Assembly (NCBI RefSeq): GCF_000757865.1
Contig: NZ_CP007754.1
Location: 420,001-452,000, forward strand
From: Prochlorococcus sp. MIT 0801
GTDB taxonomy: Bacteria; Cyanobacteriota; Cyanobacteriia; PCC-6307; Cyanobiaceae
Reading direction: 5' to 3'
Length of the DNA stretch: 32,000 nt
Part shown: piece by piece, positions 1 through 17,312 of the stretch
Position numbering within the stretch: position 1 is the stretch's first letter
Layout of the letters: each line of letters opens with the position of its first letter
The notes under the pieces: generated by a model
The model's input: the letters and a program-made list of their open reading frames with translations, nothing else
Told to the model about the DNA's origin: nothing
Databases searched by the model: none
Translations under genes and position numbers: made by a program

Positions 1-1
1 T

Positions 2-220: not shown

Positions 221-386
221 GTCTTTCGTAAGGCTCTCTGGAGGTAGTTGTATCAATTTTAAACGTGTCATCTTTTTCTCTTTGATACTCGTTAGACTTT
301 GTTCCAATGTAGTTGCCATTTATATAACTAGCATTAACCGCAGATAAATATAATTGATTCGCATATGATCGATTATAAGACGACAT
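183..386 (-). CDS. hypothetical protein (67 aa), weak call
   Basis: ORF track only. It lies about 170 nt downstream (minus strand) of repeat R1-A and overlaps the tail of the convergent HTH ORF. No recognisable motif. Confidence 0.2.
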   Translation of the reverse strand: MSSYNRSYANQLYLSAVNASYINGNYIGTKSNEYQREKDDTFKIDTTTSREPYERLTVLQEVLSQEA

Positions 387-557
387 TCACTTTTACAATA
401 ATAAATATAGAGTTTTCTGATTGAATTTCATTTGATCTAGATTTAATAAATCCCGTCATGCCAGTAAAAAGCATTTGTACTTCACTGGTAATTGACCAAA
501 ATCATGGAAATCATAGATTACTAGATCATCTAGTCTTTCTTAAATCAAATGTTGATG

Positions 558-650
558 ATTGTGAATCTAACTTGATCCAATCCACCTCAAGCTTTCCTCT
601 GTTGGCTTGATTTTTTACCTTTACCAATGATCTCAGTAGACTCATCAGCC
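558..650. repeat. R1 repeat, copy A (~90 nt)
   Basis: Aligns by eye with 10417-10506 and 15325-15416 in the same orientation. Shared plus-strand blocks are CTAAC-TGATCCAATCCA-CT-A-GCTTTC-CTG-TGGCTTGATCTTTTTACCTTTACCA...GACTCA. Confidence 0.85.
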
Positions 651-658
651 CTGCAATT

Positions 659-2158: not shown

Positions 2159-2325
2159 TTTTTAAAGTTAAACAAGATTGTAAACTAAAAGTTCATGAAA
2201 AATTTTATCTAAAAGTTGATTTAGTCGTGAGTAATTAGGAATAAAAAAGCTTTCGTTTGAATGTTCTTTTCATATTCATTTAACAAGTAATAACCACGGT
2301 GCTTTTTTGGCTTGAATAAGATCCG

Positions 2326-2529
2326 ATGATGGATATTAGTCATCGACTCATCATTGCATGGGCTACTCAAAGAGTAAATTACCTCGATGAGTTACAGAGG
2401 TATGAAGATAGTTATGCAGTTAGCCAAGAATTTTGTGAGTGGACAACATCATTCAATGTCTACCCTGAAGTACTTCAAGCTGCAACACTTAAAGTACCAA
2501 CCTTTAATAAGGAAAACCGTGCTGATTAA
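2326..2529 (+). CDS. hypothetical protein (67 aa)
   Basis: ORF track only; no motif recognised. It sits in an otherwise ORF-poor spacer. Confidence 0.3.
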   Translation: MMDISHRLIIAWATQRVNYLDELQRYEDSYAVSQEFCEWTTSFNVYPEVLQAATLKVPTFNKENRAD

Positions 2530-2649
2530 CCAACTCGATAGCTCAATTACCTAGTCAAAATATTCTTTACGTTGTGTAGGTCAGTCAATCACCTGCATGT
2601 GATTAAAGAGGGTTTTGCAATGCACCTTTTTGACACCCACCTAGGGCCA

Positions 2650-2677
2650 GGGAAATTGTTCTTTATAGCAATTTCCC
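2650..2677 (+). promoter_or_regulatory. perfect 9-bp inverted repeat GGGAAATTG-N10-CAATTTCCC upstream of the R3' small ORF
   Basis: Read directly. It lies about 35 nt upstream of the ATG at 2711. The homologous position upstream of the intact paralog (near 15815-15850) is only partly palindromic. Confidence 0.3.
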
Positions 2678-2710
2678 TTTCTCGATAAGAAGTTAATCAA
2701 ATTCATTCTA

Positions 2711-2938
2711 ATGAGCCACCACAATGCCTCTTTAAACTTTTCGCATGCACCTAATAAGCATAATGTTGCATTTAGAGAGAAGTCTCTGCATGAAATATAA
2801 ATGCAGCTTATGAATAAACAAGAACTAAGGCTTAGATATATACAGCTCATGAATGATGCACAAAAGATACTTGGTAGAGATGAGGCTATTGACTTGATCA
2901 AAGAATCTGAGGTGATCTGGGAAAAACTTAGTGCTTAG
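2711..2938 (+). pseudogene. R3 small-protein paralog interrupted by an in-frame TAA (2798-2800)
   Basis: Translation is MSHHNASLNFSHAPNKHNVAFREKSLHEI*MQLMNKQELRLRYIQLMNDAQKILGRDEAIDLIKESEVIWEKLSA. It is collinear with ORF 15908..16120 (MSNHNSTLNSSHAPYKRR...EIEMGQLRLRYIQLMRDAQKSLGEEDAINLIKDSEKIWEKLSA). The TAA aligns with GAA (Glu) of the paralog and is followed immediately by an ATG, so a 45-aa restart product from 2801..2938 is possible. Confidence 0.6.
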
Positions 2939-2952
2939 ATAGTTATTTTTGT

Positions 2953-3117
2953 TTAACGCTTGTTTTCCCAATAACTCTTTGCAGAGTCAATCATTTTAAC
3001 TATTTCGCTATCAGGACAACCAGTTTGCTCTTGCAGCAATTTGCATTGAGAATTGATATCTCTCCAGATTTCTCTGATCTCGATAAATTGTTCATCCGTG
3101 AATTGGAAGTGATTCAT
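2953..3117 (-). CDS. hypothetical small protein (54 aa)
   Basis: My own translation gives MNHFQFTDEQFIEIREIWRDINSQCKLLQEQTGCPDSEIVKMIDSAKSYWENKR. The tail (DSEIVKMIDSAKSYWE) weakly resembles the R3 family tail (EDAINLIKDSEKIWE). It is below the ORF-track cutoff. Confidence 0.3.
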   Translation of the reverse strand: MNHFQFTDEQFIEIREIWRDINSQCKLLQEQTGCPDSEIVKMIDSAKSYWENKR

Positions 3118-3314
3118 GTTCCTAGATTTCTTTGTTTATTAATAGATACGAGGAATGCCAAAATAGCAACTCTTATTTTATAAGTTACTTTTATTAGGAC
3201 TCATTTATTTATAAATAGTTTCTATTCCTATTGGCTTTAAGGAGTTAACCGAACATTGAAAACTCACAGTTGCTAATCAGTTGATAGATCATTAATGATA
3301 ACTAATAGGTGGTT

Positions 3315-3488
3315 ATGAAAAAATTCATTCCTTACTTAATTTTTTCGGCAACTACTCTACATACAGTTCTTGGCATTTCACCAGTAATGGCATTGGGTTG
3401 TAGCTCACATTCAGACAAAGCTGAGGTTGTCTGTGAGGAAGGAGATACCGATTGTGAGGAGAAAATTTCTGCTTCAAAAATCAACTAA
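3315..3488 (+). CDS. small secreted/lipoprotein-like acidic Cys-containing protein (57 aa)
   Basis: My own translation gives MKKFIPYLIFSATTLHTVLGISPVMALGCSSHSDKAEVVCEEGDTDCEEKISASKIN. It has a hydrophobic leader followed by a lipobox-like ALGC. AGGTGG lies just upstream of the ATG. Confidence 0.45.
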   Translation: MKKFIPYLIFSATTLHTVLGISPVMALGCSSHSDKAEVVCEEGDTDCEEKISASKIN

Positions 3489-3660
3489 AACAATGCCAAA
3501 GGATATTCCAGAACTTTATGAATCTATTTTAGAAGCTTCTTAACGAGGTGAATTATGGGGGATAAGTTCAGAACAAAGCCATCTGACACAACTGGAAATT
3601 GACCTCAATTCTTGTATGAATAGTTAAGACTTATTGTTTTCTGGTTTGAAATTTTTTCAT

Positions 3661-3840
3661 CTACATCAACTGCTCCTCTAAAAGCTTTTGTTCTCTTTCT
3701 TGCTTCGGTGGCAATGGTATCTTGATATTGCATAGATCTAATTCGAAAACTCCTCCTGCACCAAAGTGATTGGTGTCTGATTGTGAAGGAGAAGGGAAGA
3801 GAAGTGAAGTGGTTAGAGCGACTATCAAAAAGTTATTCAT
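3661..3840 (-). CDS. small signal-peptide protein (59 aa) immediately downstream of the protease-adhesin gene
   Basis: My own translation gives MNNFLIVALTTSLLFPSPSQSDTNHFGAGGVFELDLCNIKIPLPPKQEREQKLLEEQLM. The ATG at 3840 is 3 nt after the stop (3844-3846) of ORF 3844..7083, so co-transcription is likely. The N-terminus looks like a Sec leader. Confidence 0.35.
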   Translation of the reverse strand: MNNFLIVALTTSLLFPSPSQSDTNHFGAGGVFELDLCNIKIPLPPKQEREQKLLEEQLM

Positions 3841-3843
3841 TAG

Positions 3844-6800
3844 TTAACCAAACCCAGTCATCTCAGTAAATAATCCTTTATTTTCTGCTGATTCTGCAAA
3901 GCCTAAAAGAACTTCATATCTTGTTTCTGCTCCGCTATTTAATTGACCTACCCAATAATTGTGACCATTGCTATCGGCTGCTCTATTAAGTATGTCTCCA
4001 TACAAATTATCTATATATTCTTGATTAGTTAAATGATTTGATAACTCAACATAATTTAGTTTGTAGTTAATATTTGGAGCATGAGAAATATTTGAGCTGT
4101 TGATATTTGTTGTATCTGGTTGTCTTAGATTGTCTAAAGAATAATCTGATAAATTATCCAAAGTTAGACCAGTAATAACATCTATTGAATTGCTTGGATT
4201 GCTGACAGGACTTAATTGAAGATTACTTGAGGTACTACTGAATTTTGTAATACTATTTTGGATCTCTGAAAGTGTCGCAACTGTTGAATAGCCGATTTCA
4301 TTAATAAATGTTTTTGCCTCGGTAAGGTTATTTCCTGTAATCCAAGGACTAGTAGATGCTGGTTGATAGGCAAGTATATCGGAAGTACTTTTTCTTATTT
4401 CATATGTATATTGAATAGCAGCATTTGTTTTATGAGTTAACGTTTTTTTATCGACTTCGCTCCCATCATTATTTAGGGCAGCCCAAGTTAAATCGTTTGC
4501 AATTGAAGCAAGTTCAAGATTTCCTGAATCGATTTGACTAGACCAATAAGTTAATCCTGCGGTATCTCCATTTCTATTAAATAGGTTTAAATAGATTTGA
4601 TTGACTTGAGCTGTCGTACTTAGATTTCCATTAACCGAATTAAATTCAGGTTGCAAATACATATTTGCAGCAAAAGCTTTTTTAGTTACTTTTTGGCCCA
4701 GCCAATAATCTAATCCATTTGGATCACAAGGTCTCCCAAAATAACCAATATATAATTGTTGTAATTCAGTTGATGTCGCAGATGTAGAAGAGGTATTACT
4801 TTCATCTTCTACATCAGTAATTACTACTCGAAACCAATTTGAATTATTTACATTCTCATTAGTGTCAGTAGAGTTAATACTCATTATGTATAAATTATTA
4901 TCACCACCTGCTTGCGGGTTTTCATAGTCAAGATTTCCATTAATAGACAGAGATCCTGTGATTGGGTCTATTGAAAAATGTTGATAATCATTATTATCAA
5001 ATAGTTGTGATATAGACCAAGTGACTTCTTCATTGGCAATGAATCTGTAAATTTCTTGGTTAGTACCTTCTTGAATATCTATGGATGTCGATGAAGCAAA
5101 AGTGCCAGAGGTAGTGGAATAAAGTACATCATTATTTACTCCATAGATGATTGGTTTTTCCGTATCCCCTTCTTCTAAAGCATTAACAGACAGAGTGAAT
5201 GCTTCGGCATAGGTTTCACCACCACTATCAGTTGTTTGTAAGCGAATCTTGTAGGAGGATTTTGTTTCGTAATCCGGAGAGGCTTTAATTTTTAAGGATG
5301 ATCCATCAATCGTAAAGGAGCTGTTATCTGTATCATCAGTACCGGTGACTAAAGAGTAGGTATGCGTATCGGATGTATCATCATCTGTCGTAGAGAGAGT
5401 TGCGACCGTAGAAGCAGCAGCAATATTTTCATTAAAACTGCTTGAAGATAAGGTTAATGCTGTAGGTGTTTCATTGAGATCATTCACCGAGAGTGTGAAA
5501 GCTTTAGCGTAGGTTTCACCACCACTATCAGTGACTTGTAAGCGGATATTGTAGGAAGACTTTGTCTCGTAATCAGGAGAAGAATTTATCTTTAAATATG
5601 TTATTGCTACTCCTTTATAGATGGTGAATAAACTGTTATCGGTGTCACCATTACCACTGATTAAAGAGTAGGTTCGTAGATCGGAAGTATCAGCATCTGT
5701 ACTACCTATTGCCGAGACGATTGTAGAGGCAGCAATATTTTCATTGAAACTTGTTGAGATTAATCGAAGGTCTGTAGGCGCTTCATTAACATCGGCAATA
5801 GTAGTCTCAATCCATTGATTAGAAGAATTCCCAGCGAGGTCTGTCGCTTTTACATATATCGAATAAATGCCATTGGAATTGCTATCAAGATGATTTTCAT
5901 AATCAGGAGCATTATTAAATGTTAATAGACCAGTAGTGGAATTAATTGAAAAGAATGTGGGGTCATTTCCTCCATTAATTGACCAAGTAACAGCTTCGTT
6001 GGCAGTAAAGGTATGAACAGTTGTCGTATTCTCATTGATTGTTTTCTTACTATTTTCCGCACCAGCACTTCCTGAAGGACCCGTAATTAATGGCTTTATC
6101 TCATCTGTAGACGTATCATTAATGGATATTGATTTTGTTTTTTCGCCAATTGATAATGTGAAGTTTTCTGTGCCTTCAGTTTTTTGATCTGTACTAATAC
6201 CAATACTGAAGGTAGCCTCACCATTTTCATCAATGGTTGTTATTCCGCTAAGTGCACCACTTGAGAAATCAGAGGAGGATACTCCACTTAATGTATATGT
6301 ATATTGTGTATTCTCTTCCTTTTTATGAGTTTTAAAAGTGAATGAAATACTGCTACCTTCATTTACACTGTTAGCAGATGTTATCGTCGCAAAACTCTTG
6401 TCATATAGATAATTATTTAATTCTCTTTCTTCTAATAACCAATCAGAGTGTGCATTGAGTGCACATGCCCAACTATTAGTACTGACTACTCCAATTACTT
6501 GATATTCAAGGCTTGCACCTGAATACACATAGACAGGACCACCTGAATCACCGCTGTTAACTTCAATATCACTAGTATTCCAAGAAAAGAAATTATCTAT
6601 TGAATTTTTATAAACTATACCTTCGTCATACATCAACCTGTAATTGTATTGACCTGGATGTCCAAGTTTTGAAGCAGTTCCACTATCAAAATCAAATTTC
6701 AAACCCATCCAACCATAAGTGGAACCAATATCTGTCCCGAGAGAAATTAAGCCAATATCTTTCTCTAGTTCTAATAGTGTGCCGGGGACACCATCACCTG

Positions 6801-7083
6801 CAGTTACTAACTCATCACCATTTTCGTCCCAATCAAATGTGTTATACCATTCGGCATTATAATAAGTATTTGAACTGCTGTTAGGGTCGTATGAAGGATA
6901 TATCCTACATGCATCCGGCAAACCCCCTAGCTTCTTATCATAGATAACATGAGCAGCAGTCAGGATATCATTTTCTCCAATAATAATACCGCTACCTGAA
7001 AAAGTTTCGCTTCCATAATCAGCCTCTATATATACAACCCGCCTGAACGGTGAAATATCGTCATTTACTTCGTAAGTAGCCAT
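3844..7083 (-). CDS. leaderless multidomain exoprotein: S1 trypsin-like serine protease head, Calx-beta-like segment, cadherin-like repeats, several DUF4214-type repeats
   Basis: 1079 aa. The catalytic motifs are ILTAAHV (His), KDIGLISL (Asp candidate) and GDSGGPVYV (Ser). The Calx-like stretch reads SVNEGSSISFTF...EGTENFTLSI. There are ~100-aa repeats with FNENIAA...DxDxxD...YSL..G.(D)TDN..F.I....L......DYE.K.SY.I.LQ.TDSGGETY. DUF4214-like LYxxxFxRxxDxxGLxYW motifs occur several times. The protein ends LLGFAESAENKGLFTEMTGFG. Confidence 0.9.
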   Translation of the reverse strand: MATYEVNDDISPFRRVVYIEADYGSETFSGSGIIIGENDILTAAHVIYDKKLGGLPDACRIYPSYDPNSSSNTYYNAEWYNTFDWDENGDELVTAGDGVPGTLLELEKDIGLISLGTDIGSTYGWMGLKFDFDSGTASKLGHPGQYNYRLMYDEGIVYKNSIDNFFSWNTSDIEVNSGDSGGPVYVYSGASLEYQVIGVVSTNSWACALNAHSDWLLEERELNNYLYDKSFATITSANSVNEGSSISFTFKTHKKEENTQYTYTLSGVSSSDFSSGALSGITTIDENGEATFSIGISTDQKTEGTENFTLSIGEKTKSISINDTSTDEIKPLITGPSGSAGAENSKKTINENTTTVHTFTANEAVTWSINGGNDPTFFSINSTTGLLTFNNAPDYENHLDSNSNGIYSIYVKATDLAGNSSNQWIETTIADVNEAPTDLRLISTSFNENIAASTIVSAIGSTDADTSDLRTYSLISGNGDTDNSLFTIYKGVAITYLKINSSPDYETKSSYNIRLQVTDSGGETYAKAFTLSVNDLNETPTALTLSSSSFNENIAAASTVATLSTTDDDTSDTHTYSLVTGTDDTDNSSFTIDGSSLKIKASPDYETKSSYKIRLQTTDSGGETYAEAFTLSVNALEEGDTEKPIIYGVNNDVLYSTTSGTFASSTSIDIQEGTNQEIYRFIANEEVTWSISQLFDNNDYQHFSIDPITGSLSINGNLDYENPQAGGDNNLYIMSINSTDTNENVNNSNWFRVVITDVEDESNTSSTSATSTELQQLYIGYFGRPCDPNGLDYWLGQKVTKKAFAANMYLQPEFNSVNGNLSTTAQVNQIYLNLFNRNGDTAGLTYWSSQIDSGNLELASIANDLTWAALNNDGSEVDKKTLTHKTNAAIQYTYEIRKSTSDILAYQPASTSPWITGNNLTEAKTFINEIGYSTVATLSEIQNSITKFSSTSSNLQLSPVSNPSNSIDVITGLTLDNLSDYSLDNLRQPDTTNINSSNISHAPNINYKLNYVELSNHLTNQEYIDNLYGDILNRAADSNGHNYWVGQLNSGAETRYEVLLGFAESAENKGLFTEMTGFG

Positions 7084-7384
7084 ATCTTGAAACTTCTTCT
7101 TTAATTAAATATCATTGATTTTTTTATGATATATTATTCAAGATTAATCCAGTAAATCGATATTAATTCTGATTGTACCATGTAACTTGAGATCTATTGG
7201 TATCAATAAGATTAAAGGGCGTTAAACTTAGCTGCTCACGTATAATCTGCACATAGTTGGATTGATACAAAGAGAGATATTTTATTCCTCTCAGCATAGC
7301 TAAAGAGTAGTGGTGTCTGGGGTATATGATAGGTGATTCGATCAATAATGATCGTGAAGAAATTTGTGGTGGATACTTAGGTGT

Positions 7385-10300
7385 TTAACCAAAACCTGTC
7401 ATTTCAGTAAAGAGAGTCTTGTTTTCAGCTGATTCAGCAAAACCCAAAAGCAATTCATGTCGAGTTTCAGTACCGTTATTTAAATTGCCAAGCCAATAGT
7501 TATAGCCCTCTTGGTCATAGTCTCTACCTAAGACATTGGTGTAAAGAGTTTCTACATACTTTGCGTTAGTCACATTATCTCCATACCGCTGTTTAAATTC
7601 AGCAGAGACAAGAAATGATTGTGCAACAGCACGTTCATCATTCTCTCCAGAAGAATATTTGCCAATCCAATATTTCAAACCATCCGCATCAGGAAGGCGT
7701 TTAAAGGAAGCATTATATAAACGGAACATACGCCCTGAATCTGTATCTAAACCAGTGACTTGATCAAAGGTTCCTTTGATATCTGCGATGGCACTCACAT
7801 CACGGAACGAACTGGTGCTTGCCTCTCCGCTAAATTTTAACGATGGATAACCAGTGATGTCGTCATAACCAGAATCAGTTTTGATTTCATATTTTCCATT
7901 ACCTTTGTTATAGAACTTGTAATCACTAAATTCACCGGTATAAGTTTTCACTACGTCTACTTTGGATTCTTCTACGGTTTGATCTGAGAACTGAATATAT
8001 TCAATATTTTTAAGAGTATCGGTTCCATCAGTTGTTCCAGTCGTCCGTTGATCTGAGATTTGTAGCGTATCTGTGCCACGTGTAAAGCTGTAATTAGAAA
8101 ACTTGCCAGAATAGATCAACGTGTCAGTCTCTGTTCCGCCGTCTAAATAGTCATTTTTTGAGGTGCTTGTTATTGTATCTTTTCCTGTTGTTCCAGAAAG
8201 TTCATTTAAATCGTTGACAGTAAGCGTTTTAGTGAATGTTGCTTGACTTGGAACTGAGTACTCTCCATTGGGCAGAACAGTGGGTAATTTATATTGAGTG
8301 TCGGTTAAAAGTGAGTACAGCTTTGTATCTGTGGATTGTACTTTTGCTGATGTATTTGGTGTCCATTCATTTTTGATAGAGTCAAGTCTTCCAGTAAAAT
8401 CTTGAGCTCCTAAGATAGAGGTCAAACCCCAGTAGAAATACTCCGTTGCTTGAGTAGCATAATCACTTGTTTCGTCATAATAGGTATACCAGGCGCCAGC
8501 GGGATAAGAGCTAGGTATTGTTTGAAAATTTCCACCTCTTGCAATGTCCATGGCTTCAGTTAATAACGATGTTGTATTAACAGAAAACGCCGTTGGGTAT
8601 ACTTTGGCATATCCATAGTCGGTAATTAAATGCAGGACTTCTTCTAAAGAAGCATCAAATTTACCTGTGGCGGCACCGTTAGGGATTGTTTCTTCTCCAA
8701 AGAGGTTTTGTGCATTTAACCCTGTACTTTCTAAAACACTTAAATCTGCCGAGTCATTTTCTGCTTCGTCTTTGAACATCACTAAGGTCGCCTTGCTATT
8801 AATCATTGATGTGATAACCGCACTATCATCAGCTACTCCGTCTTCGTCATTATCAAGATATTCAGCCATGATTTTCGCAGCATGCTGTATATCACTATCA
8901 AGAGTTGTTGATGTTGCGTAAATTTTTATCCCAAAGACCTCTGCCTCTTTTGAAAAAGTCTGAGATATACCACTTGGAGCATCACTCGAAATACTTCCAA
9001 TTGAAAATGCTTTAGCTTGCTTCTGACCACTATCAGTAGTTTGTAGCCTGATGCTGTAGGAAGACTTTGTCTCGTAGTCAGGGGCTGCTTTAATTTTTAG
9101 AGATGTACCATCAATGGTAAATGAATCGTTATCAGTATCACCAGTGCCAGTTACAAAGGAGTATGTATGCGTATCTGAAGAATCAGCATCTGTTGTGGAG
9201 AGAGTTGCGACTGTAGAAGTAGCTGCAACATTTTCATTAAAACTAGTTGAGGATAATGTTATGGCTGTGGGCACTTCATTAAGATCGTTGACTGAGAGGG
9301 TGAAAGCTTTAGCGTAGGTTTCACCACCGCTATCAGTAGTTTGTAGCCTGATGCTGTAGGAAGACTTTGTCTCGTAGTCAGGGGCTGCTTTAATTTTTAG
9401 AGATGTACCATCAATGGTAAATGAATCGTTATCAGTATCACCAGTGCCAGTTACAAAGGAGTATGTATGCGTATCTGAAGAATCAGCATCTGTTGTGGTG
9501 AGAGTTGCGACTGTAGAAGTAGCTGCAACATTTTCATTAAAACTACTTGAAGATAAGACTAGTGCTGTAGGTGCGTTGACATCAAGAACCGAAATAGTAA
9601 CTGTTTGCTTAGCTATAGTTCCAGAACTATTACTTGCTTTGACGACTGGGACATAATCATTATTTGTATCACTATCAGTAGGAGTTTCATAATCGGGTGC
9701 AGTTTTAAACGTTAAAGCACCTGAACTTGAATCAATACTAAATTTAGACGCATCATTTAAATCACTTATACCTAATAAACTTTCATTCGTTGGAATATCA
9801 GAGAAAGTAAATGTTCCATCGATTTTCTCTAGATAGTAATGATCTAAATACTCAGTTCCACTACTGTTTATATATTTGAAATCAAAACGTAACGAGTCTG
9901 TCCCATTCCATTCATCAATCCAATATTGCCTAGATCTTGTAGTGGTATCTCCTCTATAGTCATTGCCATTCTGCAGGCTACTTCCATCTATTTGAACGAA
10001 CTTATCTTGAGCAGAATCATATGAAAAAGTGGACAGACTTTTAAACCCTTTTGTTCCATCATCGTTTCCACCAACATCAAGGAGAGAATTTTCTGCTTGT
10101 GTTTTAAATGTTAAGGCAATATCTCCAGATCCACTATCTTTGACCTCACCGCTTTTAAAAAAGTTTTGAGTATCAGTTATTGAGGCAGAAGAAAGTGACC
10201 AGGTAGCACTTTCAGTTGCTAAAAAAGTATGAATAGTTGTTGAATTCTCATTGATGGACTTAGTGCTTGTCAAATCAACAGCACTTCCTGATGGACCTGA

Positions 10301-10444
10301 AATTAAAAAGGAGGATGACACAATATCAATGGTATTTATCAATAAAGTAATATAACTCTTTTTGATACTTTGTAAGTGTTTTGCTTTAGAGCTAATTTTT
10401 ATACTATTTGTAGTTTTGAGTCTAACTTGACCGACCCAATCCAC
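7385..10444 (-). CDS. large exoprotein: cadherin-like repeats, unknown ~260-aa central domain, Ca-binding RTX-flanking-like segment, shared C-terminal DUF4214 module; start codon uncertain
   Basis: 1019-aa ORF. Its track start is a GTG that lies inside repeat R1-B, and there is no in-frame ATG for hundreds of codons. Alternative starts are TTG at 10342 and GTG at 10321. It contains two near-identical 100-aa cadherin-like repeats. The tail DIKGTFDQVTGLDTDSGRMFRLYNASFKRLPDADGLKYW...LLGFAESAENKTLFTEMTGFG is shared with its neighbours. Confidence 0.8.
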   Translation of the reverse strand: MDWVGQVRLKTTNSIKISSKAKHLQSIKKSYITLLINTIDIVSSSFLISGPSGSAVDLTSTKSINENSTTIHTFLATESATWSLSSASITDTQNFFKSGEVKDSGSGDIALTFKTQAENSLLDVGGNDDGTKGFKSLSTFSYDSAQDKFVQIDGSSLQNGNDYRGDTTTRSRQYWIDEWNGTDSLRFDFKYINSSGTEYLDHYYLEKIDGTFTFSDIPTNESLLGISDLNDASKFSIDSSSGALTFKTAPDYETPTDSDTNNDYVPVVKASNSSGTIAKQTVTISVLDVNAPTALVLSSSSFNENVAATSTVATLTTTDADSSDTHTYSFVTGTGDTDNDSFTIDGTSLKIKAAPDYETKSSYSIRLQTTDSGGETYAKAFTLSVNDLNEVPTAITLSSTSFNENVAATSTVATLSTTDADSSDTHTYSFVTGTGDTDNDSFTIDGTSLKIKAAPDYETKSSYSIRLQTTDSGQKQAKAFSIGSISSDAPSGISQTFSKEAEVFGIKIYATSTTLDSDIQHAAKIMAEYLDNDEDGVADDSAVITSMINSKATLVMFKDEAENDSADLSVLESTGLNAQNLFGEETIPNGAATGKFDASLEEVLHLITDYGYAKVYPTAFSVNTTSLLTEAMDIARGGNFQTIPSSYPAGAWYTYYDETSDYATQATEYFYWGLTSILGAQDFTGRLDSIKNEWTPNTSAKVQSTDTKLYSLLTDTQYKLPTVLPNGEYSVPSQATFTKTLTVNDLNELSGTTGKDTITSTSKNDYLDGGTETDTLIYSGKFSNYSFTRGTDTLQISDQRTTGTTDGTDTLKNIEYIQFSDQTVEESKVDVVKTYTGEFSDYKFYNKGNGKYEIKTDSGYDDITGYPSLKFSGEASTSSFRDVSAIADIKGTFDQVTGLDTDSGRMFRLYNASFKRLPDADGLKYWIGKYSSGENDERAVAQSFLVSAEFKQRYGDNVTNAKYVETLYTNVLGRDYDQEGYNYWLGNLNNGTETRHELLLGFAESAENKTLFTEMTGFG
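9027..9626. repeat. 2 x 300-bp tandem duplication inside ORF 7385..10444
   Basis: 9031-9250 versus 9331-9550 has a period of exactly 300 nt and only about 3 mismatches by eye (9199, 9246, 9251). Each unit encodes one cadherin-like repeat. Similarity decays after about 9555. Confidence 0.95.
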
Positions 10445-10506
10445 CTCAAACTTTCCACTGCTGGCTTTATCTTTAGACCTTTACCAAGGATTCAGTGGAC
10501 TCATCT
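10417..10506. repeat. R1 repeat, copy B (~90 nt)
   Basis: Aligns with copies A and C. It carries a 3-nt insertion (GGGTCGGTCAAG versus GGATCAAG/GGATCAGG on the minus strand) and a few other indels. It sits between the stop of ORF 10540..11952 and the 5' end of ORF 7385..10444. Confidence 0.85.
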
Positions 10507-10539
10507 GCTCTGTAATGGGAGTAATAAGTTTTTCATTGT

Positions 10540-11952
10540 TTAGGCAAATCCAGTCATCTCAGTAAAGAGAGCTTTATTTTCTGCTGATTCGGAGAAGCCA
10601 AGGAGAACTTCATATCTTGTTTCTGCTCCGCTATTTAATTGACCTAACCAATAGTTCAATCCACCGGTATCAGCATCTCTGCTTAGGACATTTCTATACA
10701 GAGTATTGACATAGATTGAATCCGAGACGTTGTCTCCATAACGCTGCTTAAATTCAGCAGAAGCTAAAAAAGATGAAGCTACGGCTCGTTCATCATCTTT
10801 CCCAGAACTGAAATTACTAATCCAATATCGTAGTCCATCGGGGTCAGGTAGACGTTTAAAGGAGGCATTGTATAGGCGGAACATTTTTCCAGAGTCTGTA
10901 TTCAGCCCAGTGACTTGATCAAAAGTTGCTTTTATATCGTTTGTAAGATTTAAATTTTTATCTTCAAACTTTAAAAGGTTAATGCCAGTTAGAGGATCAA
11001 TAGTTGTTCCATTTTTACTCTTTATCCCATATTGAGAATTCCCTAAATTGTAAAATTTAAAATCATAACTTTTATCAGAAAAAGTCATAATTTTTGATTT
11101 TCCCCATATAACTTCAAGTGATTTTATATCGACACTTTGGAACCATATGTCTTTATAATTAGTGTCATCGACATAGCTACCATTCCAACCCATCAATGAG
11201 TATTCATAGGGAAACAGTGGTTCACTTCTAAGATAGGAAAAATTTTCAGGATAATATGGGTTAAGCACATCATCATCAATTAAATCAAATGGGTGTTCCA
11301 ATCCAAGTAGATGTCCTAATTCATGAACGAAAGTTGCTTTCTGCATCTTTTTGCTGAAGTCAGTGTGATTTAAGAGATCTAAATTGTTTTCAGTGGTATA
11401 CAGTCCAGATTGATAACTTACAGAGAGTAAATTGCCACTTTTTCCTCTCTCTGTATCTGCTGATAAGAAATTATTATCGGCCAATGGTGAGATTACAATG
11501 GTGTAATCAGCTTCATCTCTTTTATTTACTAGCTTTAAGTCTATGTCGATATATTCATTTATTTTTTCAAGAGAGTCAATTACATATGACTTTTGCCATT
11601 CTTCTGGTATTAATGAATAGTATTTCTTGTTTTCTGATTCTCCTAGGTTGATATCTATTAATTCATCTCCACCAGTTGATAGATATACTTTGATTTCCCT
11701 ATTGGTTCCTGCGTATTCTTTCCTTATAGCAATTTCATCTCGTCCATCTGCAAATCCCATTATTAAATATTTAGGATCTATTGGCTTAAATGAATCTGTT
11801 TCCTGGAAATTAGTGGGAGCTGATAAATATTCTTTAGATTGAAGTCCGTTTGTTTCTTCAGCATTAACTGATAATTGGGAACTCCTTGTAAGTTCAATAA
11901 CTGTTGCAATATCAGTTTCAAACCCTTTCGATTGTAAGCAAATAAAGCACAT
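10540..11952 (-). CDS. leaderless zinc metalloprotease (metzincin, M10-like) with shared C-terminal DUF4214 module
   Basis: 470 aa. HELGHLLGLEHP fits HExxHxxGxxHP and YSLMGW is a Met-turn candidate. The C-terminal ~176 aa (SYDFKFYNLG...LLGFSESAENKALFTEMTGFA) is shared, and 122 of those residues are identical to ORF 12309..14177. Confidence 0.88.
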   Translation of the reverse strand: MCFICLQSKGFETDIATVIELTRSSQLSVNAEETNGLQSKEYLSAPTNFQETDSFKPIDPKYLIMGFADGRDEIAIRKEYAGTNREIKVYLSTGGDELIDINLGESENKKYYSLIPEEWQKSYVIDSLEKINEYIDIDLKLVNKRDEADYTIVISPLADNNFLSADTERGKSGNLLSVSYQSGLYTTENNLDLLNHTDFSKKMQKATFVHELGHLLGLEHPFDLIDDDVLNPYYPENFSYLRSEPLFPYEYSLMGWNGSYVDDTNYKDIWFQSVDIKSLEVIWGKSKIMTFSDKSYDFKFYNLGNSQYGIKSKNGTTIDPLTGINLLKFEDKNLNLTNDIKATFDQVTGLNTDSGKMFRLYNASFKRLPDPDGLRYWISNFSSGKDDERAVASSFLASAEFKQRYGDNVSDSIYVNTLYRNVLSRDADTGGLNYWLGQLNSGAETRYEVLLGFSESAENKALFTEMTGFA

Positions 11953-12001
11953 ACTTTGATATAGGCTGAAAATTAATAGCTTTTATGAAAATTTATAATG
12001 G

Positions 12002-12205
12002 CTATTTGATCTGGTCTACTGATTTTATCTTTCCGTTCCACTGGTTTGAGTTCTCATTGCTATTCACTCCCTCAATAGCTTTGTACTGGTACTTCTTAGT
12101 GTTAGGGACAAGCTCTCGATAGCAGAAAACGTTTGGATCTCTCTTGAATGACAAGACAACGCCCTTACCTTCTAGCACTTTTGTTTTTACGGCGATATTC
12201 GGCAT
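12002..12205 (-). CDS. R2 small protein (67 aa), hypothetical
   Basis: ORF track sequence MPNIAVKTKVLEGKGVVLSFKRDPNVFCYRELVPNTKKYQYKAIEG.... A decayed paralog exists at 16305-16615, which argues that this was a real gene. Function unknown. Confidence 0.45.
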   Translation of the reverse strand: MPNIAVKTKVLEGKGVVLSFKRDPNVFCYRELVPNTKKYQYKAIEGVNSNENSNQWNGKIKSVDQIK

Positions 12206-12308
12206 GAAAAACGCTTGCCTTACTGCAAATAGATTAGCAAGAGTTTGACAAAAGCTTGACCTGAGTGGTTAGAAACAAGTAATAGACTAGCTCTAAGCTT
12301 TTCATTGG
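12040..12308. repeat. R2 repeat, copy 2 (5' part of the small gene plus ~100-nt upstream region)
   Basis: Aligns by eye with 16470-16719. Long shared blocks include TTAGCAAGAGTTTGACAAAAG, GAAAACGTTTGGATCTCT, AATGACAAGACA and GTAATAGA-TAGCTCTAA-CTTTTC. Confidence 0.85.
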
Positions 12309-14177
12309 TTATGCATATCCTGTCATTTCAGTAAAGAGTCCTTTGTTTTCTGCTGATTCAGAGAAGCCAAGGAGAACTTCATATCTTGTTTCTGCTCCGC
12401 TATTTAATTGACCTAACCAATAGTTCAATCCACCGGTATCAGCATCTCTGCTTAGGACATTTCTATACAGAGTATTGACATAGATTGAATCCGAGACATT
12501 GTCTCCATAACGCTGCTTAAATTCAGCAGAAGCTAAAAAAGATGAAGCTACGGCTCGTTCATCATCTTTCCCAGAACTGAAATTACTAATCCAATATCGT
12601 AGTCCATCGGGGTCAGGTAGACGTTTAAAGGAGGCATTGTATAGGCGGAACATTTTTCCAGAGTCTGTATTCAGCCCAGTGACTTGATCAAAAGTTGCTT
12701 TGATGTCATTAGCTAGATGCATATTTTTATCATCAAATTTTAAGATCGAGGCACCTGTTAATTCATCGATTCCACTTGTTGTCTCGACTCCATATTTATC
12801 ACTTCCTAAATCATAGAATTTATAACTATCACTTTTGCCTGAATATATTTTTTCTGATTTAAATCCTAATGAAGTAATACCTTTAACTTCCTTGCTTGTT
12901 ACTAAGGCATTTTTATCTGCGAAGGTCAGCTTTTCAATATTAGATAAGGTATCAGTCCCATCATTTGTAGATGATCGATTATCTACAACAGTTACTTTTT
13001 TATTAGAAATTGTGAATGTGTAATCTGAGAATTTCCCGGAGTAGGTTGCTATATCATAGTTACTGCCACCATCAATTATATCGTCACCACTATTACCTTG
13101 AATATTGTTTTTGTACTTATTACCTGTAATTTGATCAGCACCGGAACCACCTTTAGCATTCTCAATGATGGAATTGAATGCAATACCTAAATGGTTTTTT
13201 GCAGACCAATTATTATCAAAACTTAAATCGCAAAATTCACCCTGTGAAAGATTAATTATTTGGCTCTTTGTAAAATTACCAAAATCTAACGTATCAACTC
13301 CACCCGCATCCCAAATAGTTGCAAAGAGTGGTTCGTTTGGTGAGTAGCTATAGATTGTATCTCCTACATTATATTGGTTATTTGCTCCATATAGATACTG
13401 TAAAGGTGCTATATCGTATATTCCAGGATCCATCGAAATAATATTGTTATCGTCTATAAATGTGTTTTCACCGTCGGGGCCGAATAAAGTATGTGGTCTT
13501 TTGTTTTTAGATTCAGGAAATTTAATTGTTGGATGATCTCCAGGGTGCTCGGTTCCTAAAGCATGAAAAATTTCGTGGTATAAAATTTTTAGATCCCCAT
13601 CACTTATTCCATTGTCAGGCACTGTGCCAGAAGCAAAGTTACCAATATTTTCATATTGCTTATTAAAAAAAATGTCACCTCCTCGCGGCTGATCTCCAGG
13701 GATTGAAGCTGTTGCACCAATGCCTTCTCTATAAACTCCAGATTCGTCAGTAATTGTTCTTATAGCTAATCTGATTGTTCCAACTTTTGAAATTGTCTCA
13801 CCATTCTCCTCAACGTCTTCTTCATCAACTTCGACAAAAGTTATATTTACAAAATCACTTATGCGTTCAAATGCTTTTCTGATATCACTTGCTTGTTTTT
13901 CTGTGAAAGCGGTAGCTTTGACTAACCCAAGAAACTCTTCTTCAGCATAACTATATCTTGCTGTCTTCCCATTTAATCCTGGCAAGCTATAGGTAATGAC
14001 TGTTGAGGAATTTACAGAATGATCCTTTGTATAAACTGGATCCGAGACCCATCTAATAGGTTGTCCTTGTGAGTTGTTAAAAAGAGAATCTATATAGTCA
14101 ATGCCAGAATTGTTTACGAATTCAATTGATTGATTGGCAGTTTTGTGGGTTTGTTGTTTTGGTGTCATATATTTCAA
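12309..14177 (-). CDS. leaderless serralysin-like metalloprotease (M10B-like) with RTX Ca-binding repeats and shared C-terminal DUF4214 module
   Basis: 622 aa. HEIFHALGTEHPGDH fits HExxHxxGxxHP. The RTX nonapeptides are GGSGADQIT...GNSGDDIIDGG. The RTX-flanking pattern is YSGKFSDYTF...DGTDTLSNIEKLTFADK. The tail is DIKATFDQVTGLNTDSGKMFRLY...LLGFSESAENKGLFTEMTGYA. Confidence 0.9.
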   Translation of the reverse strand: MKYMTPKQQTHKTANQSIEFVNNSGIDYIDSLFNNSQGQPIRWVSDPVYTKDHSVNSSTVITYSLPGLNGKTARYSYAEEEFLGLVKATAFTEKQASDIRKAFERISDFVNITFVEVDEEDVEENGETISKVGTIRLAIRTITDESGVYREGIGATASIPGDQPRGGDIFFNKQYENIGNFASGTVPDNGISDGDLKILYHEIFHALGTEHPGDHPTIKFPESKNKRPHTLFGPDGENTFIDDNNIISMDPGIYDIAPLQYLYGANNQYNVGDTIYSYSPNEPLFATIWDAGGVDTLDFGNFTKSQIINLSQGEFCDLSFDNNWSAKNHLGIAFNSIIENAKGGSGADQITGNKYKNNIQGNSGDDIIDGGSNYDIATYSGKFSDYTFTISNKKVTVVDNRSSTNDGTDTLSNIEKLTFADKNALVTSKEVKGITSLGFKSEKIYSGKSDSYKFYDLGSDKYGVETTSGIDELTGASILKFDDKNMHLANDIKATFDQVTGLNTDSGKMFRLYNASFKRLPDPDGLRYWISNFSSGKDDERAVASSFLASAEFKQRYGDNVSDSIYVNTLYRNVLSRDADTGGLNYWLGQLNSGAETRYEVLLGFSESAENKGLFTEMTGYA

Positions 14178-14235
14178 CTATGGATTGATAGATAAGCCTC
14201 CGATTACTATTGGGAATAAACTGCAAGGAAAAGAT

Positions 14236-14853
14236 TCATTCGCAATTTTCCCTAAAGAATTTTGCAGCATCGTCATCCCCAAGCTCTGCAGCTTTTCTCC
14301 AATCTTCACATGCACCTTTCATCTCTCCCATTTCTTTTTTTACATGACCACGATTAAAAAATGCATCTGAATCTTTTGGGTTGATTTTTATAACTTGTGA
14401 ATAGTCTTCAATTGCATCATCAAAATCTCCCTTTTTAAATTTGGCAATACCTCTATTGAAATATCCATCTGCATATAAAGGATCGAAATCTAATGCCTTA
14501 TTTTGATCGGAGATTGCACCTTCAAAATCACCTGAATTACGTTTTGCATTACCGCGCATTGAGTAGACAAGGCAAATCTCAGTAGGTGAAAGTTCCAAAG
14601 CTTTGTTGTAGTCAAGTATTGCCTCTTCATAATCTGCGAGTTCAAATTTATCTTGTGCTCTATTAAAAAAATATTCATAATCTCTTGCTTTTTTATTTAG
14701 CTCGATCTTATCTTTTAAAGCAATCATTAATCCTGCACCCACAACTACAGCAGTAGATCCAACAACAAGATCCTTATTAACTTTTAGTAGCGATAAACCA
14801 GTAGCAGTGGCAGCACTAATGCCTAAGGAAATCAATGTTTTACGGAGTTTCAT
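14236..14853 (-). CDS. membrane-anchored tetratricopeptide-repeat (TPR) protein
   Basis: 205 aa. There are two N-terminal hydrophobic segments, then 3-4 TPR units (AILDYNKALELSP, AISDQNKALDFDP, AIEDYSQVIKINP, ACEDWRKAAELG). Its start overlaps the nuclease stop (ATGA at 14850-14853). Confidence 0.85.
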   Translation of the reverse strand: MKLRKTLISLGISAATATGLSLLKVNKDLVVGSTAVVVGAGLMIALKDKIELNKKARDYEYFFNRAQDKFELADYEEAILDYNKALELSPTEICLVYSMRGNAKRNSGDFEGAISDQNKALDFDPLYADGYFNRGIAKFKKGDFDDAIEDYSQVIKINPKDSDAFFNRGHVKKEMGEMKGACEDWRKAAELGDDDAAKFFRENCE

Positions 14854-15323
14854 ATTTTATTCATGCTCCACTCACATTGACTTGAATACCTTTTATAGAT
14901 ACGTGCAAAGCCTTTTTCAACTAGGTGTTCTTGAATATTAATAGGACCTTTTGATAACTCCGCGACTGTTCTTCCATATCGATCTTCACTGATACGGCGA
15001 ATGCTTATTGCTGATCCGGCAACTAAATCATTTAAATAATCTCTTGCTGCTTTAGCAGCAATTAGATCAGCTTTTTTTTCTCTCAATTCAGGAGTATCAA
15101 TACAAGCAAGTTGGATCTGTTCTCCTTCGGTAGTTGTACAAGTATCCACGTCGTAGCAGTTTTGTATGGTGACTATTGGCAGATCAGAAGCGCTTGGATA
15201 AGTGGTTAGTGTCTGGAAGAGCGTAATCATCGCTAATACAAAGACAATAAATAATGCTGAGAAAAATCCAATAAGTAGATTTCTTATAAATCGCTGTTCA
15301 GAGTTCAGTTTATATTTTGGCAT
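14850..15323 (-). CDS. membrane-anchored staphylococcal-nuclease-like (SNase/thermonuclease family) protein
   Basis: The SNase signature order is present: DVDT (for DGDT), QLACIDTPE, DRYGRTVAEL and LVEKGFARIYKRY. A TM helix (LLIGFFSALFIVFVLAMITLF) precedes it. I prefer the ATG at 15323 (MPKYKL...) because the track's TTG start at 15416 lies inside the non-coding repeat R1-C. Confidence 0.8.
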   Translation of the reverse strand: MPKYKLNSEQRFIRNLLIGFFSALFIVFVLAMITLFQTLTTYPSASDLPIVTIQNCYDVDTCTTTEGEQIQLACIDTPELREKKADLIAAKAARDYLNDLVAGSAISIRRISEDRYGRTVAELSKGPINIQEHLVEKGFARIYKRYSSQCEWSMNKI

Positions 15324-15324
15324 T

Positions 15325-15416
15325 GTGATTGTGAACCTAACCTGATCCAATCCATCTGAGGCTTTCTTCTGATGGCTTGATCTTTTTACCTTTACCAGGA
15401 ATGTCCGAAGACTCAA
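15325..15416. repeat. R1 repeat, copy C (~90 nt), directly abutting the nuclease ATG
   Basis: Aligns with copies A and B. The repeat ends 1-2 nt before the ATG at 15323 when read on the minus strand. Confidence 0.85.
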
Positions 15417-15420
15417 TAGT

Positions 15421-15426
15421 ATTTTA
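15421..15426 (-). promoter_or_regulatory. candidate -10 box TAAAAT just upstream of R1-C (minus strand)
   Basis: The minus strand reads GTTATAAAATACTATTGAGTC. The identical hexamer TAAAAT lies upstream of R1-A (656-661, minus strand), but there is no clear equivalent upstream of R1-B. No convincing -35 element was seen. Confidence 0.3.
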
Positions 15427-15530
15427 TAACGAACTCCTGTTTTGCTTGCATCATGAGAAGTAATTGCTGTTAGTGAATCAGATATATCTTCTATTTAAAT
15501 GGCAAGAATATTATTAATCCATTAATCTTG

Positions 15531-15680
15531 ATGCCGCAGATTACTCTTCTGCTATCTCAGTTTTTATTCTTGACAGTATTTGCTAGCGGTTTGTCTTTAA
15601 TATCGATGCTATTTTTACGGCTTGTGAAAGAGCCTTTCTCCCCTGTACACAGAGGGGCATTGTACTCTCTGTATGATTGA
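15531..15680 (+). CDS. hypothetical small hydrophobic protein (49 aa), weak call
   Basis: My own translation gives MPQITLLLSQFLFLTVFASGLSLISMLFLRLVKEPFSPVHRGALYSLYD, with one clear TM-like segment. There is no other support. Confidence 0.2.
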   Translation: MPQITLLLSQFLFLTVFASGLSLISMLFLRLVKEPFSPVHRGALYSLYD

Positions 15681-15907
15681 GAACATCTTCCGTGTTAAAG
15701 CACTTCCAAGACATCTTTAGGATAGAAAGGGAACCGAACAAATTTCCAACACACTCATTAAAACTGTTAGTCAGAATATTTAAATGTTGGGATCAGCACC
15801 AACTAGGGTAGAGAAGCTTATGCGATGTGAATTTCTTTCTTGAATCAAGGGATTTGGAGTTTTCTGTGGTCAGCTCTCTACTCTTTCCTAACTTTTATTG
15901 AGGCTTG

Positions 15908-16120
15908 ATGATGAGCAATCACAACTCCACGCTAAATTCCTCACATGCACCATACAAGAGACGGACTTCTTTGAGTGAATTGGATCGAGAAATTGAAATG
16001 GGTCAATTAAGATTGAGATATATACAGTTGATGAGAGATGCTCAAAAGAGCCTTGGAGAGGAAGATGCTATAAACTTAATTAAAGATTCTGAAAAGATCT
16101 GGGAAAAACTTAGTGCCTAA
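15908..16120 (+). CDS. R3 small protein (about 70 aa), hypothetical
   Basis: The ORF track gives 15905..16120, where the first codon is TTG and ATGs follow at 15908 and 15911. A paralog exists at 2711..2938. The conserved C-terminal half is LRLRYIQLMxDAQKxLGxxxAIxLIKxSExIWEKLSA. Confidence 0.55.
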   Translation: MMSNHNSTLNSSHAPYKRRTSLSELDREIEMGQLRLRYIQLMRDAQKSLGEEDAINLIKDSEKIWEKLSA

Positions 16121-16304
16121 TCAAGTTTTACTCAAGGGGGTTGTAGGTAGAAGTTCGTTAAATCTGTCTAAATATAGCTACCTGTAATATTCTTTCTCAG
16201 CCCTTTGTTTTGAAGAGATTTTTCTTTTAATAGATCAGCAGAACTTTCTTCTGCTCTTCTTCAAGAAAGTTGTGGAGGAATTTCTTTATGCTGACTTCCT
16301 TGGA

Positions 16305-16615
16305 CTAAACCATATTCTCGCCAATCATTCTTGATCTTCTTCTAGGTTTATTGGTTTCTATTTCGTACTGAGCTTTTGCGAATGCTGCTTCCTCAACCTG
16401 ATCTGCGATCTCGTTCCTTAGTGCTTTATGTGCATCAAGTGATTTATCAATTGAATCACCTACGGTATGTACATCCTTAACAACTTTGTACTTGTACTTC
16501 TTATTATTAAATTGGGACTAGCTCTCAATACCAGAAAACGTTTGGATCTCTTTAAAATGACAAGACAGAGCCTTTACCTCCAAGCATTTTTGTTTTTTTC
16601 GGGGATATTCGAAAT
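16305..16615 (-). pseudogene. decayed R2 gene copy next to rpsD
   Basis: Relative to 12002..12205, the start ATG is ATT here (16613-16615). There is a 1-nt insertion in the first ~20 codons. CGA has become TGA (TATTGAGAG versus TATCGAGAG). TAA triplets occur near 16505-16515. A longer ancestral tail remains readable: ...KDVHTVGDSIDKSLDAHKALRNEIADQVEEAAFAKAQYEIE.... Confidence 0.7.
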
Positions 16616-16703
16616 AAAAAAACTCTCACCTTACTGAAAACAGCTTAGCAAGAGTTTGACAAAAGTTTGAACTGAGTCGTCAGAAGAAAGTAATAGATTA
16701 GCT

Positions 16704-17312
16704 CTAAACTTTTCTTGAGTAATACTCAACAACTAACAATTCATTAATTTCAATAGCAACCCATTCCCTATCTGTCTTTGCAGATATCTTTGCCGAGAGT
16801 TTGGTTTTATCAAGCTCAAGGTGCGGAGGAACATTAGCAAGACCTGGGAATTCTAAGTTAGCTTGAGCCAGTTGCTTACTAGCTTTGTTGTCTCTGATAG
16901 CAATCACATCTCCAGCCTTGCATTGGTAACTTGCAATGTCAGTGATTTTGCCATTAACAGTTACATGCCCATGGTTTACTAACTGTCTTGAACCTGGGAT
17001 GGTAGGTCCAAATCCAAGCCTAAAACAAACATTATCAAGCCTATTTTCCAGAAGCTTTAAGAGATTTGTTCCTGTGGAACCCTCCTGAGCACGAGCTTTC
17101 TTTACGTAGCGAACAAGCTGGCGTTCAGAAATACCATAGTTGAATCGAAGTTTTTGCTTTTCTTCGAGTCGGATCGCGTATTCAGAGCGCTTGCGACGGG
17201 CTTGGCCGTGCTGACCTGGTGGATGAGACCTTTTTGCGGCCTTCCGGGTGAGACCAGGTAGGTCTCCCAAGCGTCGCGTGATCCTCAAACGAGGTCCGCG
17301 GTATCTAGACAT
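16704..17312 (-). CDS. rpsD: 30S ribosomal protein S4
   Basis: [22 protein letters not shown]..., [13 protein letters not shown] and the S4 RNA-binding domain are present. It is full length at 202 aa. Confidence 0.98.

Follow-up and report, generated by a model that had tools for sequence, protein, structure and literature searches.

A previous report described tycheposons in Prochlorococcus at seven tRNA or tmRNA genes (Hackl et al., bioRxiv 10.1101/2020.12.28.424599). In that report, several elements could integrate in tandem at one attachment (att) site, the older ones being pushed inward, and "non-tRNA-associated" integrases were mentioned as well. The protein-coding gene rpsD is not named as a target in its text or in the supplements consulted, and we did not find such a target described for Prochlorococcus. 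It has been reported that islands of Streptococcus agalactiae, namely SagCI, PICI1 and PICI2, reside in the 3' end of rpsD (PMC4129442, PMC7487436). In this study, we analyzed a stretch of 32,000 nt from Prochlorococcus sp. MIT 0801 (NZ_CP007754.1, positions 420,001 to 452,000), hereafter the window, which has a low GC content of 36%. A sequence-only reading of the window had noticed a repeat, R2, with one copy next to rpsD (copy B) and one copy further inside (copy A). We found that the rpsD end is very probably the left junction of an island of about 17.8 kb, inserted there by an integrase resembling the Int protein of phage lambda (lambda Int) that has since decayed, and that copy A is a second remnant.

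The rpsD gene (30S ribosomal protein S4, 202 aa) is located at 16704..17312 on the minus strand, and its last 14 nt are the attachment site. Compared with the rpsD genes of Prochlorococcus low-light clade I (LLI), it showed 97-100% identity. The junction was compared in relatives with and without the island, using 80 loci fetched around rpsD homologues. The site was empty in seven LLI loci (L001, L002, L006, L007, L009, L012 and L013). In 7/7 of these, rpsD ended with ...TCAAGAAAGGTA TAG/TAA (AAG GTA TAR), and a GCCCC-T7-GGGGC terminator and then metB followed within about 100 nt, with no island between them. The flanks of the empty locus L002 were 98% identical to those of the window, and L002 had nothing in common with window 1-16703. 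In eight occupied loci (L003, L004, L008, L010, L011, the metagenome contigs L081 and L082, and the window), rpsD ended with ...TCAAGAAAAGTT TAG (AAA GTT TAG), followed by the arm of R2. The last two rpsD codons therefore differ synonymously in step with occupancy, being AAGGTA in empty sites and AAAGTT in occupied ones (ending AAAGTTTAG). The rpsD end of L005 was a hybrid, AAAGTA.

A second copy of the rpsD tail, CAAGAAAGGTATAG (variant GGTATGG in L011), was found in L005 and L011, followed by the ancestral terminator and metB. This copy represents attR. The chromosomal attR sequence CAAGAAAGGTATAG was absent from the window, and the attR of the island was found beyond it on contig L090 of the same strain. 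This contig is 100% identical to window 1-2520 and reaches 2.7 kb further; at about 3640-3659 it carries TTTTACTAAAGAAAGGTATAG, then the terminator and metB. The island occupies 1..16710 of the window and runs about 1.13 kb past window position 1 to attR (ACTAAAGAAAGGTATAG), giving the total of about 17.8 kb from attL (core 16711-16717) to attR. The sequence common to attB, attL and attR (empty L002; L005, L011 and L090) is CAAGAAA at 16711..16717 on the minus strand, which we assign as the core or crossover region. Next to it, at 16704..16710 on the same strand, is the rpsD end supplied by the element, AGTTTAG, which comprises the A of the Lys codon, GTT and TAG. It stands in for the chromosomal GGTATAG or GGTATAA, and the codons are synonymous.

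A homologous integrase (53% identity) was also found in an rpsD-metB island of the low-light clade IV (LLIV) strain MIT 1201 (L087). Here the rpsD end is repeated perfectly over 19 nt on both sides of the island, at 9870-9888 and 19574-19592. From the empty sites and from the second copies of the rpsD tail that precede the old terminator, we conclude that attachment takes place at the rpsD 3' end and that the element brings the last two codons, the stop codon and a new terminator. The att-like direct repeats at rpsD that had been proposed from the sequence alone were thus borne out by the empty sites, by attR in L005, L011 and L090 and by the 19-nt repeat in LLIV, and the insertion boundary lies at the repeat.

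We then determined what R2 encodes. The repeat search gave gapless blocks of 83% (12207-12312/16618-16723), 86% (12105-12188/16514-16597) and 77% identity (12061-12104/16466-16509). In a global alignment of copy A (12053-12293) with copy B (16462-16703), 193 of the 236 aligned columns were identical (82%) with three indels, so the repeat between the internal copy and the rpsD-adjacent copy is real. The decay reported for copy B was also found, with ATT for ATG at 16613-16615, a 1-nt insertion and nonsense codons. The insertion lies right behind the ATT, an additional 4-nt insertion lies further in, and the frame contains stops, as in LSF*RDPNVFWY*ELV. Pfam profile searches with the 67-aa open reading frame (ORF) of copy A and with a reconstructed 102-aa R2 peptide gave no match, and the identity of R2 therefore came solely from full-length relatives.

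In L008 (P. marinus MIT 1012) and L010, both of LLI, an intact ORF of 475 aa beginning MPNIAEKSKVFGGKGVVLSF was found about 90 nt past the rpsD stop. The L008 protein matched Pfam Phage_integrase (PF00589) over residues 312-445 with 35.8 bits, above the curated cut-off of 27.1, and PHROG integrase families matched this type of integrase at E about 1e-17. In an alignment of 31 homologues, R326 and R410 were invariant, and H433 and Y441/Y442 were at least 90% conserved; their catalytic roles were assigned by position in the PF00589 match. An AlphaFold model of the integrase had a mean pLDDT of 79.8, with a confident N-terminal beta-sheet-plus-helix domain (pLDDT 85-91). Its best structure match in PDB was full-length lambda Int (1z1b_B; E 1.2e-7, 449 columns), but with a root-mean-square deviation of 18 A. 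No match was obtained by sequence search in PDB or by tblastn against 50,697 phage records, and no relative was found among the viral contigs of IMG/VR. The family comprised 34 clusters at E <= 1e-5 among 5.8 billion proteins. These results indicate that R2, which had been read as a gene of about 100 aa, is instead the upstream (P') arm and the 5' end of a predicted lambda-Int-like tyrosine integrase gene of 475 aa. Its earlier description as the element-proximal end agrees with this, since R2 is the integrase-proximal end of the element.

Copy B is an integrase pseudogene at 16201..16615 on the minus strand, covering residues ~1-137 of 475 with the start codon lost, two frameshifts and several stops. 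A tblastn search with the L008 integrase traced residues 6-137 through three frames down to 16201. Position 16305, where the remnant had been thought to end, is a stop codon inside it. By blastn, window 16203-16701 corresponded to L008 11106-10612 and the match picked up again at L008 12147; the remainder of the protein including the catalytic domain, about 1.0 kb, is missing relative to L008. Copy A, at 12002..12205 on the minus strand, retains residues 1-51 (12053-12205) in frame with the ATG kept. These 51 integrase codons, with 68.6% identity to residues 1-51 of the L008 integrase in tblastn, are followed by 16 unrelated codons and form the 67-aa ORF. The catalytic domain is gone from both copies, and neither is a complete, potentially active gene. 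The integrase gene is frameshifted in L003 and L004 too. Copies A and B were closer to each other (79-82%) than to the L008 type or any relative (71-73%) and had derived states in common, and they therefore come from one element lineage. The presence of at least two integrase remnants of one lineage in the island is consistent with more than one event.

The P' arm of copy B (16616..16703, minus strand) could be aligned with those of L003, L004, L008, L010, L081 and L082. It contains a degenerate tandem pair of arm-type repeats at 16652-16673 and a hairpin with a T-run at 16620-16657. In the relatives, pairs of AGTCMAAC motifs, 11 nt apart, were found in the P' arm, between the rpsD stop and the integrase start, and in the P arm beside attR. 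These motifs are putative arm-type sites for the N-terminal domain of the integrase. In L008, a strong hairpin (-18 kcal/mol, z -5.7) followed by T7 stands right before the integrase ATG. The hairpin of copy B had -16.9 kcal/mol and z -4.7, and both of its substitutions keep the pairing as G-U wobbles. In the P' arm of copy A (12206..12293, minus strand), the terminator hairpin at 12209-12246 has decayed (-10.6 kcal/mol, z -2.2) and is lost. A hairpin whose pairing was kept through wobbles next to rpsD and which is lost in copy A is consistent with a terminator role. After integration, the P' arm hairpin would terminate the rpsD transcript, and it was probably kept in copy B because it now does so. 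In L087, a different arm repeat, TCTATACAATAA, was observed near both island ends (9952; 19286 and 19308).

In the marine Synechococcus loci L022, L033 and L059, rpsD is likewise followed by remnants of the P' arm and of the N-terminal part of the integrase. A search for attR-type repeats in islands of other clades (L014-L016, L021, L022, L027, L048, L059 and L060) gave weak, ambiguous matches only. Many other Prochlorococcus and Synechococcus genomes (L014-L016, L019, L020, L022, L024, L027, L033 and L059) had a tandem motif xxCAAAC-N3-xxCAAAC with a hairpin and a T-run in the first ~100 nt after rpsD, and rpsD-to-metB gaps of 0.9-9 kb. The rpsD-metB junction appears to be a widespread island hotspot with old arm remnants.

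These data can be arranged into a mechanism of integration. A lambda-Int-like tyrosine integrase would join the site of the element to the chromosomal ...TACTCAAGAAA/GGTATAG, the order in the element-borne site being P arm - CAAGAAA - AGTTTAG - P' arm - int. S4 is left unchanged by integration because synonymous last codons and the stop come with the element, as does a terminator hairpin of its own. At attR, about 17.8 kb away, are the displaced chromosomal tail (…AAGAAAGGTATAG), the former terminator and metB. In this genome the integrase gene has lost its start, has acquired frameshifts and stops and lacks about 1 kb including the catalytic domain, and the island is therefore fixed in place. 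In copy A, the P' arm and 51 codons would have been fused to the opening codons of a small ORF within a 9-nt stretch resembling the att core, either by integrase action at a pseudo-att site or by microhomology-mediated illegitimate recombination or duplication.

The predicted element is similar to lambda-type elements that target the 3' end of genes. The integrase model has three domains and its best structure match is full-length lambda Int. The integrase gene lies beside att with an inward orientation, both arms contain repeated arm-type motifs, copies of the target 3' end stand as direct repeats at the island ends, and the coding end is restored and a terminator supplied. It differs in that the present integrase is very divergent, with no PDB or phage match by sequence, in that no excisionase was recognized and no excised form seen, and in that the integrase in the window is a pseudogene.

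The junction of copy A was investigated as well. The alignment of the two copies continues beyond the rpsD stop (16704-16706) without a gap, as had been described. The 30-mer quoted for this segment was present, but at 12277-12306, with an offset of 2 nt from the 12279-12308 assigned to it. The last 15 nt of rpsD and its stop matched 12293-12310 at 13 of 18 positions. Among about 64,000 other positions of the window, just 6 gave an equally good match, or about 1e-4 per position. The extension is therefore more than chance, contrary to the suggestion that it could be fortuitous. The junction microhomology GAAAAGCTTA, at 12294..12303 on the minus strand, matches both the start of a small ORF and the rpsD tail or att; the 9 nt GAAA(A/C)G(C/T)TT, within which the junction lies, coincide with the att core region.

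The flank of copy A belongs to a gene for a 622-aa serralysin-like DUF4214 protein (12309..14177, minus strand; Pfam Peptidase_M10_C, DUF4214 and RTX), which is island cargo. The stop of this gene is 2 nt from the ATG of the small-ORF remnant. Its orthologues in L091-L093 have 90-93% identity (P0035, 93%), and L091 and L092 have the same SNase-TPR-gene context as the window. In L091-L093 there is no R2, and the gene is followed by TAA CCAATGAAACGCTTCTTACTACTC (TAA CCAATGAAACGCTTC), where a 69-aa signal-peptide ORF begins. The window flank, TAA CCAATGAAAAGCTT/AGAGCTAGTC, was identical to this flank at 13 of 15 positions and to rpsD at 11 of 15. By BLAST, the orthology of L091 with the window extended from 15415 to exactly 12295. 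A complete small signal-peptide ORF of 59 aa (MNNFLIVALTT...), which serves as reference for the flank of 12309, is located at 3661..3840 on the minus strand after the paralogue 3844-7083. Homologues of it are present at L008 16608-16814 and as small ORFs in L091 and L095. The same post-stop motif is found behind paralogues 10540 and 3844, and the flank of 3844 runs into the full small ORF. Because orthologous flanks without R2 carry the motif, what had been taken for ~13 nt of duplicated rpsD codons is the conserved beginning of the small ORF, its first codons. A P arm of the L005/L011 type was found neither left of copy A nor anywhere else in the window, so that copy A does not qualify as a clean tandem att site with its anchor at rpsD. 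Of the proposal that at least two insertions or duplications were anchored at the rpsD end, the plural events are consistent with the two remnants of the same lineage, and the anchoring of copy A is not supported.

A second junction in the island was observed in the flank of gene 10540. At 10520-10539, the small ORF is kept over its first 17 nt (ATGAAAAACTTATTACT), and the sequence then switches, at the microhomology ATTACT, to the tail of a second integrase gene.

How the internal junction of copy A formed is something we infer from its sequence. As the microhomology coincides with the att core, illegitimate recombination and integration at a pseudo-att site are about equally likely, and a tandem integration at rpsD is less likely. 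Illegitimate microhomology recombination or unequal crossing-over between the rpsD tail or attL and the small-ORF start, by which the P'-int segment was duplicated or transposed without the integrase, is a tentative but reasonable candidate. The 9-nt microhomology at the junction, the ATTACT microhomology at the second junction, the many further duplicated modules in the island, and the higher identity between copies A and B (79-82%) than to any relative (71-73%) are all as expected from it. However, a breakpoint so near the att core would then be a coincidence. Moreover, copies A and B have diverged by 18%, more than the core flanks of the window have from those of most LLI relatives, the empty site with its 98% identical flanks among them, so that a duplication in situ would be old and the island would have been transferred whole.

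Tyrosine integrases, both of lambda and of integrative conjugative elements, are known to act on secondary att sites. Here the integrase may have put an element of this lineage into the pseudo-att CAATGAAACGCTT at the small-ORF start, inside the resident island, and we regard this as possible but somewhat doubtful. The junction falls within about 10 nt of the crossover region that was set independently by attB, attL and attR, and the pseudo-site has CAA-GAAA-G-TT in common with the core; its likeness to the rpsD tail would thereby account for the position of the junction. Nevertheless, the window does not contain the reciprocal junction, in which the P arm and the core would be followed by the remainder of the small ORF, and the C of AGCTTAG, which falls to the element side of the presumed crossover, agrees with the small ORF and not with the element.

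It is unlikely that copy A is an internal att site (P-O-P') left by a second integration at rpsD att, with its first ~13 nt being a true copy of the rpsD tail and core. The match to the rpsD tail is in register, AGCTTAG is nearer to the element AGTTTAG than to the chromosomal GGTATAG, and the tandem integration of tycheposons (bioRxiv 10.1101/2020.12.28.424599) offers a precedent. These points are outweighed by the R2-free flanks of L091-L093, which match the window better than rpsD does and are orthologous to it up to 12295, by the same post-stop motif at the paralogues 10540 and 3844, and by the absence, left of copy A and from the whole window, of the P arm that is present at attR of L005, L011 and L090. 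The tandem att site, first considered because the repeat edge coincides with the core, was dropped as the leading model on the orthologous flanks and the orthology to 12295. Finally, there is practically no chance that R2 is an ordinary small chromosomal gene duplicated after rpsD without any mobile element or att: copy A does retain a start codon and an intact ORF, and its peptide has no Pfam match, but its first 51 residues are the N-terminus of an integrase intact in relatives, and the empty sites, the attR copies and the rpsD codon switch show an insertion and already refute this idea.

Several observations weigh against the integration of the island by an rpsD-specific lambda-Int-like integrase, with copy A as a second remnant, as set out above. 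The architecture of the elements is not uniform, because the integrase of L087 lies at the metB-proximal end, facing inward, in the orientation opposite to that in LLI; in L088, also of LLIV, the integrase is likewise beside metB, in a locus that stops short of rpsD. The activity of the integrase and its binding to arm sites are predictions from sequence. No excised circle or attP was found in viral contigs, and the metagenome contigs L081 and L082 show the integrated state only, with rpsD followed by int. The island holds many other duplicated modules in scrambled order, so that the number and order of events cannot be reconstructed. In addition, the 13/18 match is unlikely by chance (~1e-4), and an att-related cause for the position of the internal junction is likely.

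Compared with the tycheposons and cryptic integrase elements of Prochlorococcus, the rpsD island has the same host genus and an inward tyrosine integrase at one end, and cargo builds the island beside att with degenerate integrase fragments scattered in it. It differs in its att site, which is in the protein-coding rpsD and not in a tRNA gene as in tycheposons. No primase, helicase or polymerase hallmark gene was found by Pfam among the island ORFs of at least 60 aa in the window; the relatives L008 and L096 have a T7-like RNA polymerase instead. SagCI and the PICI islands share with it the target gene, the end of that gene and the rationale that an essential gene is kept intact. However, they belong to another phylum, their integrases have 398 aa, and the islands, about 15 kb long and equipped with a primase, are phage-inducible satellites. 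The use of rpsD in the two groups looks like independent use of one kind of target.

A conserved ORF of 71 aa at 15905..16120 on the plus strand is convergent with the integrase gene, which it follows in every relative. It had blastn matches in L003, L004, L008, L010, L011, L081, L083 and L086, and searches of Pfam and PHROG with it gave no match. A second, truncated copy of this 71-74-aa convergent ORF was observed at 2801-2938 (77% identity to 15905-16120). The conserved ORF could encode an element maintenance or excision factor.

In a Pfam survey of island ORFs of at least 60 aa, which left out ORFs nested within longer genes, only proteases, cadherin/DUF4214, TPR, SNase and photolyase were found. 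Four large secreted proteins with a common DUF4214 C-terminus are encoded in tandem at 3844-7083, 7385-10444, 10540-11952 and 12309-14177; they are of the trypsin-cadherin, cadherin, metalloprotease and serralysin-like kinds. Genes 10540 and 12309 differ in their N-terminal parts but have 96% identity over the last 300 nt, a pattern suggestive of recent recombination or gene conversion. A DNA photolyase gene (659-2158; FAD_binding_7, E 1e-60) forms cargo near the attR end, and an identical gene is on L090. ARAGORN detected no tRNA or tmRNA in the window. A module of ~100 nt was observed three times, at 556-657, 10415-10516 and 15326-15415, with 69-87% identity. The module represents the 3' tail of the second, different tyrosine integrase gene, and the SNase-like gene overlaps it with its 5' end; the module is homologous to the L008 ORF 13508-13783, which matches PHROG integrase families. 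The full SNase gene (14850-15416) is attached solely to the copy at 15326-15415.

An integrase of 46% identity was found in L096 and L097, which lack rpsD, and no recognizable rpsD fragment, att or attP was present upstream of it. A T7-like single-subunit RNA polymerase of ~800 aa (Pfam RNA_pol, E 6e-44) was observed at L008 16872-19316 and L096 5478-7880, with 26-28% identity to its best phage matches, the T7-like cyanopodoviruses; none was found in the window. Its occurrence in islands and contigs with this integrase family hints that the parent element was phage-like. We tentatively suggest that the integrase family marks a separate lineage of picocyanobacterial integrative elements at rpsD, undescribed in the literature searched, which recurrently gives rise to the rpsD-metB island (LLI and LLIV) and left remnants in Synechococcus. 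The T7-like RNA polymerase would suggest a new phage-like or satellite element, and its integrase may also add material by using att-like pseudo-sites within islands.

The mechanism itself is textbook and the kind of element is well known. We recommend annotating the 67-aa ORF and the other ORFs of R2 as integrase pseudogene fragments. The locus is a clear example of an element that replaces the last codons and terminator of its host gene, the terminator being kept after the integrase decayed. The elements that target rpsD have their own small, divergent integrase family, present in at least two Prochlorococcus clades and as remnants in Synechococcus. Islands of Prochlorococcus are now explained largely by tycheposons at seven tRNA or tmRNA genes, and the rpsD end is a further att site that seeds islands.

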